From Eledone cirrhosa (Eukaryota): a stretch of 64,000 nucleotides of DNA. Below, piece by piece: positions 1 through 46,195 of this stretch; position 1 is the stretch's first letter, and every line of letters begins with the position of its first letter. Where the stretch lies: the NCBI GenBank assembly GCA_964016885.1, contig OZ024740.1:354516001-354580000 (forward strand), given 5' to 3'. Under the pieces are notes generated by a model, which did not search any database, was not told where the DNA came from, and saw nothing but the letters and a program-made list of their open reading frames with translations. Both the position numbers and the translations under genes were made by a program.

Positions 1-36
1 GTTCTTTCGTTGCACATCTGCAACATCATCAGTGGT
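1..36 (-). ncRNA. Hammerhead ribozyme motif in PLE pLTR, cut by the window edge
   Basis: Minus strand reads ACCA CTGATGA T GTTGCA-GATG-TGCAAC GAAA GAAC, giving the CUGANGA core, a 6-bp stem II and GAAA. Confidence 0.7.
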
Positions 37-1205
37 AGTATTATGTTCCTCCTGTTGTATTGTATATCTACGCCATCTTTATTTAATCTGTTTATATATT
101 TATTTATTTATTTTTGTCTTCTTCTCTGCGCATGCGTTTGCGTGTGTGTATAGTGTTTGGTGTGTATTTGCGTTTGGGTGACTGTGTTTTGGTTATTGTA
201 TTCTATCTTAGTTTACTAGTGTGTGCTTGTATGTGTTTGTGTATATATTTATTTATATTTCTCTTAGGTCAGTATTGTTTGTTTGGGTGTTGTTATTCCA
301 TTCATTTTTTCTGTTTAGCTTCTAAGTTCTATTTCACTTGCCTCTCTGATTTGCCTATCTGCTGGGTAATTTCTATGTTTAGATATTATTTTAATTTCTA
401 TGTTGTCTATGTTACCGTCATGTTGTTGTCTGGCGTGTTCGTATAGTACTGAACCGTTTTTTCATCCTTTTAGTTCGCCCCAGTGTTGGTCTATATTTTC
501 ACCTATGCTACGAGCTGTCTCACCTATGTATGTTGTTTCTGCAAGTACCCCCTGTACATCTTATGCTATAGACTACGTTTCTAGTTTTACAGTTTATTCG
601 GGGGTTTATTTTACATATAATACATTTCTTATTAGTACAGTGGGTTTACTTATGGTAGTTCCTGGCTTTTCTACCACCTTAATCTTTAAGTGGGTCTTTC
701 TCAGGGCCTTTCTACACTGGTTAGCTAATTTCCCTCCAGGGGTAGCGTCCAAGAACATGACATTCTGGTATCTCTGGTTGTCGTACCATGAGGTGGCTTT
801 CCCTGTCTTATGTTTAGTCCTATCTAAGCTATTCCATGATTTGCTCCTGTATAATGGGCAAATTCCTTTCATGTCCAGTTCTATGAGGGTCTTATACTTC
901 TCCGTGGCTCCTTCGTATACTCTGATTCTGTCTCTTTGGTTGTAGCCAGAGAACTGCATGCAGTTGATGAAGTGTTGGATGTGTCTTTCCATTTCTGTTG
1001 AGTCGCACATGCGGGACACGTTCTTCATCACTCGTACCATGTCTGCTATCAGAATATTAAACTTAGCACTACTGGACATTGTTGAGTTTTTGAGTATTTG
1101 GAGGCCATGGGTTTAGCGTAGTGTGAGTGGAGAATTTGGGCCCTCTCGTCTATAGTGTTAATCCAGAGTTCCGTGTCTAATACAGGTAGTCTTAAACTAC
1201 CTGTA
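1..1205 (-). mobile_element. Penelope-like element (GIY-YIG PLE), family P1 copy 1; 5'-truncated and decayed
   Basis: ORF 606-1079 encodes the PLE RT C-terminal region (SAMSSSAK...FSGY...CPLYR...[12 protein letters not shown]). It is followed by a frameshifted Cys-rich and GIY-YIG region. It is colinear with copy 17174-18384, and its 5' end abuts (TA)n. Confidence 0.85.
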
Positions 1206-1214
1206 TTAGACACG

Positions 1215-1276
1215 TGTATATATATATGTATGTGTGTATATATATATATATATATATATATATATATATATATATA
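1215..1276. repeat. (TA)n microsatellite
   Basis: Directly visible dinucleotide tract. Confidence 0.95.
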
Positions 1277-1278
1277 AT

Positions 1279-41951: not shown

Positions 41952-44900
41952 ATCATCATCATCATCATCATCATCAACGTTTAACGTCCGTGTTCCACGC
42001 TTGCATGGGTTTGGACGGGGGTAGTCCCACTTGAGGCAAGAGTGATTGTCTTGCTCGCATAGGACTGTCTGGCAGGTTTTCTACAGTTGGATGCCCTTCC
42101 TAACACCAACCACATTTACAGTGTGGGTCTGGGAGGTTTTTACCGTGTTGCCTACACGGCCACATTACAGCGTGCACTGTGTGTTTTTTTGTCATGACAC
42201 CTACACGATCTCATTTGTTTCGGCCTGGATGGCGCGGCACCAACATAACTTTACATAGAACGGGGTGGTGTGGATGGGGTGGTGGTGGTGGTGGTGGGAT
42301 GGGGTGTATTTTGTTAGAGATGCCTACTGGCTGGAGTAGGTTTTACTATATATTTAGGTAAGGCGGGTCTTCTCTGTTACTGAGTACCGCCAAAGGTCTC
42401 GGTCCAGTGACATTGTCTTGGAGAGGTGTAAGTGTGTGATGTCGGAGTTTATCAGCTCGTCCCAGGTTTTTCTGGGTCTGCCTATTCCGTGGCTACCGTC
42501 TATCTTTATTGCCCTGCACTTTGTTATACAGCTGTCGTCTTTCATGTGCATCACGTGACCATACCAACGTAGCCTTCTCTCGAGTAAACAACATCTGATC
42601 CCTCTTATCTCTAATTTTTTCCTTAGTTCGTTTATGCTTTGCCGTTCACGTATATTACTGTTACACATCCAGCGGAGCATGCAAGCTTCGTTCCTCTCTA
42701 GTCTGCGTATATCCTCTGCACACAATGCCCAGGTCTCACTGCCATGCAGCATTGCTGTTCGTATGCAGGCATCGTACAACCTGCCTTTCATTTTTAGGGA
42801 GAACCCTTTAGCAGCTAATAGTGGTATAAGCTCTCTGAACTTTTTCCAACCAGTTCTGACTCTAGCTACAGTACTTTCAGAGCACCCTCCCCCACTGCTG
42901 ATTTTATCGCCCAGGTAACGGAAGCTGTCCACTATTTCTATAGAACCCTCTGCGCAATTGAAAGAGCTAGTATTTTGTGGGCACTTGCTGCTACTTATTG
43001 CACCAGAACACCGGCCACATGTAAAATCTATGTTCTTAGTTAGCTTACCTGTGATCCCACTACATCTTTTATGCACCCATACTTTGCATTTAGGACATAA
43101 AATGGAGTTTCTACCTACGCCTTTCCTACACACCGAGCATGACCATTTCCCAGAAGGGACCGCCGCCTTGTTTTCTTTCCTACAAACTAGAACTTTGGTC
43201 TTAGCCAGGTTAATTTTAAGTCCTTTTGACTCTAGGCCGTGCTTCCATGTTTGGAATTTCTTCACTAGCTCGGCCATTGATTCCGCTATGAGTGTCAGGT
43301 CGTCTGCGTATAGGAGTTCCCATGGGCAGCCTGTCTTGAACTCCTCTGTTATAGCCTGAAGGGCAATAATAAATAGTAGGGGGCTGAGAACAGAGCCCTG
43401 ATGGACGCCAACTTTTACGCTAAACTCTTCACTATATTCGTTGTTAATTCTAACCTTGCTGACTGTTTCTTTATAGATGGCTTGTATAGCCCTCACAAGC
43501 CATTCGTCAACGCCTAGTTTTCTAAGAGCCCACCAGATAATGGAGCGGGGGACTCTGTCGAAGGCTTTCTCCAAGTCGACAAAAGCTAAGTAGAGGGGTT
43601 TACCTTTAGCTAGGTACTTCTCCTGTAGTTGTCGTACTATGAAAAGAGCGTCTGTGGTACTTTTGCCTGACACAAACCCGAACTGCATTTCATCTAGGTC
43701 AATTCTCTCTCTGATTAGTTGCGCTATTACTTTTTCCGTGACCTTCATGACCTGGTCGATTAATTTAATGCCTCTATAGTTACTCCTATCTAGGGCGTCT
43801 CCTTTACCCTGATAACAGTTAACGATGATGCTGCTATGCCAGTCCTTCGGAACAACCCCATTCTGTACGACTTGGTTAACTATGCGGGTGACCATGGTGT
43901 GTCCCACCGTGCCAGATGCCTTCAGCATCTCAGCAACTATTTCCGAAGGCCCAGCCGCCTTACCCGTCTTTATATCCTTGATTGCCTTACTTATTATACT
44001 CCCCTCGACTAACACTGCTGGTCCCTCTATTGGGTCGATATGGGGGAGACTGTCTTTCTCCCATTTATTCTCCTCATTTAGTAGCCTTTCATAGTGACAC
44101 TTCCAAGCTACCTTCTTATCAGCGTTGGTGATGGCAAGTGTGCCATCGTCGTTTAGTACACACTTCTCCCCGACAATATCACGGTTTTCCTTGACGCATT
44201 GCTTAGCAATCCTGAACACCTCACGTTTTTGGTCATCGCGTTGTAGAACATGCTTGAACTTTCTTTCCTCAGCTTCCCTTCTTGCTAAGTACACTTGTCT
44301 CCTAGCTTCCCTCCTGGCCACTTGATAGTCTTCTCTACTTCCCCCATCCCGCCATACTTTCCAAGCCTGCTTTTTGGCCTTAATTGACCCCTCCACCTTA
44401 CTGTTCCACCACCATGTTACTCTCCTCCTGCCTACAGGCCTACTCCAGCCACAGACTTCGTCTGTCGCCAACAGCAGGTTTGCTTTCAGAAATTCCCACT
44501 CTCCCTCTATATTGTCCGACTCTAAATGTTCTTCCTTACTGTCGAAAGCATCAAGTAATATGCTTTGAAATTTATTCCTGGCTGTGGGGTCCTTTAGCTT
44601 CCATATTTTTCTCCTGAGGATAGTCCTCTTCTGCTGTCAAGTACGTCTCGTCCTGACTATGAGCTCGCTAATTATCAGTCTATGTTGGGAGGTGCAATCT
44701 TCATGGGGGAGGGATTTAGTGTTTACAACAGACACTCTGTCACGTCTTCTGGTAAGGATATAATCTACCTGGCTTGTGTGTTCCCCGGATCTATAGGTGA
44801 TCAGGTGATTGTCACGTTTTTTGAAGTTAGTGTTACAGATAGTTAGGTTATTTGCATCACAGAATTCCAGGATTCTGGAGCCTTCCTCATTTCTAGTACC

Positions 44901-45621
44901 AAACCCATAGCCTCCATGGATTTCGTCGTAGCCGTCACAATGTTGTCCAACGTGACCATTTAGGTCGCCTGCAATAATTATATAGTCACTGTCGGATATT
45001 TGGGAGGTAGTTAGCATCAGTGTCTCATAGAATCTGTCTTTTATAGTACCGGGCAGTCCGGATTGGGGTGCGTACGCAGATATTACTGTCACCGTAGTTC
45101 TATTGAGGACAAGTCGTATTTTAATTATTCTGTCGTTCACTCTATTTACGTCTATTATCTTATCTGCCCACTTTTCTGCTACCATGATTCCTACTCCACC
45201 CAGCCCATCATCGTTTCCCACCCAGAAAAGCTTATAACATCGTTTTTTACCCTCAATGAATCTAGCAGACCCACCCCTCCACCTGGTCTCTTGAATACAA
45301 CAAACATCGACCTCCTTACGTTCAAGCATTTCTACAACCTCGTTAGCGCGACCCTTTAGGGTGCCTACATTTATGGTACCAACTCTGAAGTTTTGGATTG
45401 CGTTTGGGGGTTGGGGGCGGTGGGGGGTGGGGGGCGATGGGGTTATGTTAGCCGTCCGCGGTCGAAACAATGAGGAGTGCTCGCATTCTCGTCCAAGAGG
45501 TGAATTTGTCTTTATCTTTGGCATTGTCGCTGAGCGTCCAGATTTTTCTCTCTCTCCTCCACTCTCCAGGATTCCGCAGTCCATCCATCCATCATATATC
45601 GAAAGTCAACCAGGCAAGCGA
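41952..45621 (-). mobile_element. RTE LINE, near full-length young copy
   Basis: APE endonuclease, RT, PHD, C-terminal region, 3' UTR subrepeats and (TGA)n tail. Confidence 0.96.
42354..45584 (-). pseudogene. RTE ORF (APE endonuclease-RT with PHD finger), one in-frame stop
   Basis: ORFs 44637-45584 and 42354-44471 are in the same frame, and the 55 codons between them are open. The only interruption is TGA at 44637-44639. Confidence 0.92.
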
Positions 45622-46045
45622 TAGTATAGGATATTATTATCAATATTCGATATAACCCATACGTACATATGTATACGTACATATGTATGTCTGTGTGTGT
45701 GTATCATCATCATCATCATCATCACCGTTTTACGTCCGTTCTTCCACGTTAGCATGGGTTAGATGGGTTGTCCTGTTGTGAGCAGTGTCTGGTCGGCTGA
45801 CCATGCCTTGCTCATATATATATATCATCATCATCCTCATCATCATTATTTTACGTCCGCTTTTCCCTGCTTATATGTTTGTGTGTGTGTACATGTGTAT
45901 ATATATATATATATATATATGTGTGTGTGTGTGTGTGTACATATGCATACTTACATTTATGCATCAGCTGCGCTAGGGTGAGAAATAAAATACTAATTTT
46001 ATTTTTATATATATATATACTACATAAGACAATTATTCCATTTTC

Positions 46046-46195
46046 CAAAGGTTTCATGAAGACAAACGAGTTTAACAGAGACGTCTGAAATCGCTCATCA
46101 GAATGAAAATTTAATCTTCATTAAATTAAAATTTTCATTCTGATGAGCGATTTCAGACGTCTCTCTTGAACTTGTTTGTCTTTGTGAAACCTTTG
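46046..46195. repeat. Palindrome of two head-to-head family C hammerhead motifs
   Basis: Arms of about 70 bp, each reading ATTTTCATT CTGATGA GCGATTTCAGACGTCTCT...GAAA CCTTTG outward from the centre. Confidence 0.75.

Follow-up and report, generated by a model that had tools for sequence, protein, structure and literature searches.

Penelope-like elements (PLEs) that carry minimal hammerhead ribozymes in their pseudo-long terminal repeats (pLTRs) are the closest described relatives of the elements analysed here. In Hydra-clade PLEs with a C-terminal endonuclease (EN+; Craig et al. 2021, PMC8557442), the protein has RWR and DKT motifs, a CxCX5C linker, no CCHH motif, and CxxC and CxH at the last endonuclease residues; the elements insert into (TA)n and bear a hammerhead close to their 3' terminus, in many cases with a U on either side of stem II and with a UU site. 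The minimal PLE hammerheads of Cervera and de la Pena (2014, PMC4209133) are type I, with a palindromic stem III, an extra base after A9 and a C3U/G8A variant, and occur as many families per genome, mostly as solitary truncated copies and inverted pairs. Statements on published work, here and below, refer to the parts of each source that our search covered. All these features recur in our material, a 64-kb stretch of the 3.0-Gb Eledone cirrhosa genome (G000:C1:354,516,001-354,580,000, hereafter the window). We consider it probable that the hammerheads of the window lie in the pLTRs of several PLE families, mostly as 5'-truncated 3' ends, and that one family, F3, whose core has A in place of U at position 4 (U4A), still cuts, slowly or with the help of a protein.

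Several published Hydra hammerheads (Craig 2021 file S2) share with F3 the U-stem II-U-GAA layout and a UU site. However, all 25 Hydra families in that file have CTGA, whereas F3 has CAGA and a second family of this genome has CCGA. F3 also differs from the published Hydra elements (PMC8557442) in its 5-bp cis stem III with a 7-nt loop, its length (3.26 kb, compared with generally <3 kb) and its more than 10,000 copies. A position-4 variant was not found in the covered text of PMC4209133. Among natural core variants, the rare departures collected by Perreault et al. (2011, PMC3088659) include a viroid U4C with reduced activity; they are rare single cases, whereas in this genome U4A and U4C have each become fixed in a family with thousands of copies. 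U4A was not found in the covered text of that paper and our literature search returned no natural U4A hammerhead; the figures of Perreault et al. with the inactive variants, and Lunse et al. 2017, the largest catalogue of small PLE-linked hammerheads, lay outside the search, and either may contain one.

Two further systems resemble parts of this picture. The Poseidon element PAc of Anolis (Frangieh et al. 2024, PMC11167929) shares with F3 two 3' ends downstream of the cleavage site and retention of the whole hammerhead, but it belongs to a different clade, and the F3 hammerhead and the two 3' ends are located 5' of the start codon of the next open reading frame (ORF). Non-LTR retrozymes (PMC7229834; bioRxiv 10.64898/2026.07.22.740005) are likewise ORF-less, hammerhead-bearing DNA related to pLTRs; they form tandem arrays of fixed units, whereas the window sites are dispersed truncated ends, and such an array lies elsewhere in the genome. 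Beyond single entries in Craig et al. (PMC8557442), our search found no survey of cephalopod PLE hammerheads.

Hammerhead folds and their Penelope-like parents

The original prediction listed 16 hammerhead motifs in the first 46 kb of the window, six of them strong CUGANGA-stem II-GAAA-stem III-UH folds and ten weak, variant or partial copies, and the described sequence is present at all 16 coordinates. Our canonical descriptor is of type I (CTGANGA, stem II, GAAA, stem III, UH and stem I, with an offset or one stem mismatch allowed). Stricter descriptors failed at most sites owing to a bulged or offset stem II (a first form gave no match and a second two, against none in 60 shuffles), and the loosened form is hence tuned on window sites; it was therefore tried independently on other tiles of the genome. 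In its final form it yields seven canonical matches in 64 kb, compared with 0.37±0.63 (maximum 3) in 100 local dinucleotide shuffles. These are all six strong sites (1592, 10623 and 30506 on the plus strand; 10856, 13427 and 17167 on the minus strand) and an additional one at 62402-62501 (+), which has one decayed relative (L293). The core (CUGANGA, GAAA, UH) and stems I, II and III of a type I hammerhead are present at all seven. None of the ten weak sites passes the canonical descriptor. They belong to real families as decayed or truncated members. Four of them are members of the U4A family, the most unusual feature here, which had been filed as weak copies, and the motif at 36136 has only faint relatives. 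The hammerhead at 1-36 is complete when read across the window edge.

The palindromic stems III named earlier (TATATA, TGATCA and CGCGCG) are indeed there, joined by CCATGG at 62402, with predicted self-duplexes of -3.8 to -15.3 kcal/mol. Between families F2 and F8, three stem pairs have changed on both sides, and 94.6% of cells are paired compared with 20-42% in slid controls; the comparison uses 17 distinct of 43 copies chosen by motif pattern, and, the two families being related, it holds few independent events. An excess over shuffled sequence and stem covariation, both proposed as checks in the original prediction, are thus seen. The window motifs are real type I hammerhead folds, and their cleavage is predicted from the sequence. 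An Rfam search at E up to 10 returned 112 matches, none of them a hammerhead and none reaching the gathering score, and Pfam had no match for any PLE protein piece. ORF-based or Rfam annotation therefore misses these elements, in line with the expectation that ORF-based annotation would overlook them.

The assignment to pLTRs of several PLE families also held: nine of the 16 sites (F1, F2, F3 and F8) belong to families with an ORF-bearing parent, of Hydra and Neptune/Nematis types. The assertion that no ORF lies nearby did not survive, as ORF remnants stand directly 5' of the hammerhead at four of the 16 sites (1-36, 13427, 17167 and 28060). In F1, F2 and F8 the ORF lies upstream of the hammerhead, and a reverse transcriptase (RT) and a GIY-YIG endonuclease can be read from its motifs; the F8 hammerhead is 313 nt behind the GIY-YIG remnant, and the F8 family core is canonical. 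No ORF-bearing parent was reached for F4, F5, F6 and F7 (30, 8, 27 and 33 copies, respectively) or for the motifs at 36136 and 62402.

F1 is numerous, with the best 40 of 1,556 candidates about 97% identical; two of its loci (L005 and L006) are 87% identical to window positions 13280-14570. It has inverted and tandem partners, an inverted partner being present at 13 of 29 F1 loci and at 8 of 30 F3 loci. Its parents (L332 and L333) have Hydra-type endonuclease motifs, and these motifs together with 42-66% RT identity point to the Hydra clade. In both parents, a single ORF is followed by two F1 subfamily variants in tandem, spaced by about 500 bp (L332:3997 and 4491; L333:3788 and 4288), an arrangement that could permit a cis dimer. 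The F2 parent (L334-L336) has DKSG, CX4CxxC and CCHH motifs; with a CX2-5CxxC linker, CCHH and a C-terminal endonuclease, F2 and F8 are of Neptune or Nematis type, either clade fitting.

In F1, F4, F5, F6 and F7 the shared sequence upstream of the hammerhead tapers continuously, so that the 5' ends form a ladder and are not fixed, as predicted for 5'-truncated copies; the copies end in TA repeats. Tandem ORF-less units of fixed length, the mark of a retrozyme, are not seen in the window, where the sites are dispersed and their 5' ends laddered. The window motifs are probably pLTRs and 5'-truncated 3' ends of PLEs, not a separate non-coding class, with seven of the 16 sites lacking a reached parent. 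The idea that most are non-autonomous units thus keeps a foothold at those seven sites and fails at the nine with ORF-bearing parents.

Position 4 in F3 and in its relatives

The four F3 members of the window (2648, 10409, 16325 and 37589) are all damaged. The family layout is a 5-bp stem I, CAGAAGA, U, a 3-bp stem II, U, GAAA, a 5-bp cis stem III with a 7-nt loop, UU and stem I. The invariant U4 of the CUGA turn is absent from this layout, and we file F3 as a variant and not as a canonical member. An exact 34-mer with A at position 4 has 10,159 copies genome-wide, compared with 206 copies of a 29-mer, hence a shorter string, that has one of the other three bases (C, G, T) at this position, no base being dominant among the 100 matches listed. 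Position 4 is A in all ten F3 copies from unbiased tiles, and in contigs of two runs from the same organism no other letter reached 5%. Runs from other organisms (X5 and X6) held five and three low-depth, mostly near-identical F3 pieces, which we did not use as evidence of spread.

The F3 parent has a pLTR-ORF-pLTR structure with a 3,259-bp spacing (L131; also L329-L331). Searching at the protein level yielded 14,185 candidates; of the 150 that were scored, many lie in 713-aa open frames. RWR, DKT and CxCX5C are present in all five loci inspected, which were chosen for 713-aa frame length. With these motifs, CxxC, CxH and no CCHH, F3 appears to be an autonomous, young Hydra-clade PLE of more than 10,000 copies.

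The copy at 2648 belongs to an older F3 subfamily that is also CAGA, in nine of nine exact matches; among 27 aligned copies 23 have A and four T, the latter at junctions or in one triplicated locus. When the majority letters of 31 old and 182 young copies are compared, the 39 core and stem positions show no difference, whereas 4 of 12 positions in the loops and 23 of 148 in the flanks do (27/160; Fisher p = 0.003). Both subfamilies keep G5, A6, G8, A9, G12, A13, A14, the C3-G8 pair and A15.1-U16.1. The 3' ends of F3 copies fall at two places, 29 and 111 nt downstream of where cleavage is predicted, and the copies contain the whole hammerhead motif; therefore, the RNA that was copied was uncut there.

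A second Hydra family, likewise autonomous, has C at position 4 (U4C). It has 4,636 exact 30-mers, with C in 99 of the first 100 matches listed and no match in the window, 832-aa open frames between pLTRs in three of four loci, and the full set of Hydra motifs (L349:1001-5190, L350, L352; G000:C1). In the RT core, compared over segments of different length, the U4C family is 66% identical to the canonical F1 parent and 46% to F3, while F3 and F1 share 42%. Because the RT core of the U4C family is closer to F1 than to F3, its sequence suggests that U4A and U4C arose separately.

Related elements from other organisms were taken from metagenomes (78 loci, 60 of them with a descriptor match, giving 60 distinct matches). 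These comprise 52 CUGA motifs, two with the C3U/G8A swap that keep U4, one U4C and five inside ORFs, which were set aside as chance (one of them CAGA); the remaining 18 loci yielded one further CUGA motif and 17 none. U4 is thus retained in 55 of 56 non-ORF motifs. The single U4C hammerhead (L426:1167, a metagenome contig) has a palindromic stem III and lies upstream of a Hydra-type ORF with its own canonical motif.

A mechanistic model and its alternatives

For F3 itself, we lean towards slow or protein-assisted cleavage, predicted from the retained core, over a purely structural role, which we regard as less probable, and over drift, which seems unlikely. Cleavage is favoured over a structural role because every other core base is kept. 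We then propose the following model. On the analogy of the Poseidon element of the anole, the RT-endonuclease would nick AT-rich DNA and reverse transcription would begin within an uncut transcript, 3' of the hammerhead, so that even the shortest copies would keep a hammerhead. The two 3' ends of F3 could be such internal starts, and, again by the anole analogy, the hammerhead may cut only with the ORF protein. In that element, cleavage is protein-assisted and catalytic mutants still insert in vitro (PMC11167929). The ribozyme's own job might be trimming tandem or read-through transcripts, with palindromic stems III letting the canonical families act as dimers. A weak ribozyme would be tolerated because the template must stay uncut. 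A viroid U4C variant stays infectious despite reduced activity (PMC3088659).

Several observations weigh against cleavage by F3 and the PLE origin. The F3 hammerhead fold (-5.5 kcal/mol) lies above the minimum-energy fold (-8.8 kcal/mol) and folds no better than shuffles (z = 0.40). The contrast between old and young F3 is one comparison with no compensatory pair, the choice of nine of the 31 old copies used a pattern that overlaps the motif, and the core positions alone (0/13) fall short of significance given a 17% background. In one library, every single mutant of the CUGA turn was weak (PMC9901934). A search of the eLife supplements gave no numeric value for U4A activity. The pLTR may instead be conserved as a promoter or as protein-binding DNA, and a parent has been reached for only nine of the 16 sites.

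If the F3 hammerhead no longer cuts, its three-way fold could be kept as a structural signal for protein binding, RT positioning or a promoter, with cleavage dispensable for PLE spread. This is a possible but less favoured account. It fits the change of U4 in two Hydra families that are not each other's closest relatives, both of which reached thousands of copies with open frames, as well as the insertion in vitro of hammerhead mutants (PMC11167929) and the success of Naiads without canonical hammerheads (PMC8557442). However, all other core bases and pairs are retained in both F3 subfamilies, and the natural viroid U4C variant is active enough in vivo (PMC3088659). We rate it as improbable that U4A is a neutral change, spread by a single successful master copy with a dead ribozyme, and that the stems look conserved only since the subfamilies are close: the single lineage comparison, the weak predicted fold and the lack of compensatory change within F3 would agree with it, but loops changed at 4 of 12 positions while core and stems did not change at all. 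More tentatively than slow or assisted cleavage by F3, we suggest that Hydra-clade PLEs twice independently replaced U4 while keeping the fold, and that U4A would make either a protein-dependent hammerhead, in which the protein repairs the uridine turn, or an RNA handle for the RT.

It is also unlikely, though slightly less so than a neutral U4A, that most sites are true non-autonomous ribozyme retroelements, retrozyme- or short interspersed element-like, with their own transcription and possibly circular RNAs. The lack of a reached parent ORF for F4, F5, F6, F7 and 36136 speaks for it, as do the many F4 copies that begin just upstream of stem I and the 558-bp ORF-less tandem hammerhead array elsewhere in the genome (L236 and L225). 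On the other hand, nine of the 16 sites trace to ORF-bearing PLEs, the 5' ends are laddered, the window holds no tandem array of such units, and the query used to select the F4 loci itself starts at the truncation point. Large animal genomes have long introns, and the motifs could in principle cleave a host pre-mRNA spanning the window; F6 and F3, with their cis stem III, might work as monomers. We regard this as very unlikely. No host exon was recognised in the window and 20 kb on each side (104 kb), and both strands bear motifs. Of the two F1 copies, one is on each strand, which precludes pairing in cis, and same-strand identical partners are few. Most motifs would need a dimer partner, and a single minimal hammerhead showed no cleavage (PMC4209133). 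The best host-exon candidate, at 7826-8168, was rejected as a remnant of a long interspersed element (LINE) like 46453-47079.

Genome-wide load and neighbouring elements

To place the window in its genome, we applied the descriptor to 60 evenly spaced 10-kb tiles (600 kb) on 18 contigs, 40 of them from the four largest contigs (54% of the genome). The tiles hold 105 matches compared with 2.6 in shuffles; 23 of the 105 come from one tandem family in two tiles. With that family removed, 8.7 matches are expected per 64 kb, and P(>=7) = 0.64. The hammerhead density in the window is ordinary for the genome, and no local enrichment is seen. Extrapolation gives ~4.0x10^5 motifs without the tandem family (tile bootstrap 2.7-5.4x10^5) and 5.1x10^5 with it, an estimate that is rough because 40 of the 60 tiles come from the four largest contigs. 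For comparison, the largest published count that we found is 126,247, in the axolotl (PMC7229834), about one third of our estimate and obtained with a different descriptor; a covariance model listed 235 hammerheads for the giant squid (PMC6962438), and PMC4209133 reports 2,000-9,000 per genome, also with a different descriptor.

The C3U/G8A core swap recurs in several tile families (L208, L218, L229, L241 and L242; L220 and L248). The tandem array at L236:152-7402, together with L225, consists of 558-bp ORF-less units, each with a canonical hammerhead and a palindromic stem III, and looks like a true non-LTR retrozyme.

TA microsatellites abound in the window, at least 67% of which is repeat as measured against a limited locus set; the hammerhead-bearing features of the window are collected in Table 1. 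Between 10380 and 11030, the F3, F5 and F6 hammerheads are stacked within 650 bp around TA repeats, which suggests repeated insertion into the TA tails of earlier copies. TATA-like boxes stand shortly upstream of the F6 (10920-10932, minus strand) and F7 (30446-30460, plus strand) hammerheads and are possible candidate pLTR promoters.

Table 1 Hammerhead-bearing features of the 64-kb window.
Feature	Position	Strand	Details
F2, 5'-truncated Neptune/Nematis-type PLE	1..1200	-	RT-thumb and GIY-YIG remnant 256-1112, then hammerhead 1-36
F1 (Hydra-type) 3' fragment	1440..1846	+	fragment 1473-~1846; canonical hammerhead 1592-1646 (TATATA); inverted junction 1440-1514
F3, older subfamily, decayed copy	2648..2820	+	core CAGAAGA (U4A)
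F4a	3010..3160	-	hammerhead 3089-3154; stem III CC-TTT-GG; no parent ORF reached
F4b, subfamily related to F4a	3200..3306	-	hammerhead 3242-3303; first stem I pair broken
F3, young subfamily	10403..10583	+	5'-truncated within stem I; core CAGAAGA (U4A); pLTR of autonomous 3.26-kb Hydra-clade PLE (putative)
F5	10600..10720	+	canonical hammerhead 10623-10680; stem III TGATCA; no parent ORF reached
F6	10850..11030	-	canonical hammerhead 10856-10906; 4-bp cis stem III; no parent ORF reached
F1, 5'-truncated Hydra-type PLE	13270..16272	-	broken RT and endonuclease 14587-16270; 3' untranslated region; canonical hammerhead 13427-13481
F3, short copy	16302..16377	-	U4A and private A9G
F2, 5'-truncated Neptune/Nematis-type PLE	16950..18384	-	ORF remnant 17467-18384; hammerhead 17167-17209 with weak 3-bp stem I
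F8, F2 relative	27412..28150	+	GIY-YIG remnant 27412-27742; hammerhead 28060-28102 with private G5A
F7, older family	30024..30722	+	canonical hammerhead 30506-30595; stem III CGCGCG; long stem II insert; no parent ORF reached
Decayed hammerhead-like remnant	36136..36180	-	GAAA box broken; faint relatives only
F3, decayed copy	37585..37660	+	core deletion; G12A
F4c, two head-to-head copies forming a palindrome	46000..46242	.	3' halves of both damaged
Additional canonical hammerhead, overlooked in the original prediction	62402..62501	+	CCATGG stem III; long stable stem II; fold z = -3.0

A broken L1-like LINE with ORF1, endonuclease, RT and zf-RVT pieces (30745-35585, plus strand) lies directly behind F7. 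The F7 hammerhead was considered as the 5' end of this LINE and rejected, since F7 ends at 30722 and other F7 copies precede unrelated sequence. Another LINE family, with an endonuclease, an RT and a PHD-like finger, is present at 42354-45605 (minus strand), 11476-12947, 19385-22325 and 52374-53113 (all plus strand); in the copy at 42354-45605 only a single stop separates two long frames, and 11476-13271 matches this copy at 99% identity in inverted orientation. The segments at 46453-47564 (minus strand) and 7826-8168 (plus strand) are remnants of one LINE, whose C-terminus resembles that of restriction-like endonuclease elements, a label for which there was no library match. About 2-4 kb left of the window, L141 holds helicase-like frames that we take to resemble a Helitron. 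Contigs of two runs, compared with 48400-64000, gave repeat-to-repeat joints only.

Together, what is new here is the fixation of position-4 variants in two successful families and the genome-wide hammerhead load, while the rest is mostly of a known kind. Descriptors that demand CUGA, as well as Rfam, miss such families entirely, so that surveys undercount them. Why PLEs keep hammerheads is an open question: minimal forms cleave poorly, one needs a protein, and mutants insert in vitro. F3 represents a natural experiment on this question, as a young family with many open frames, a core change expected to cripple cleavage, a protected fold, and canonical relatives that serve as controls within the same genome.

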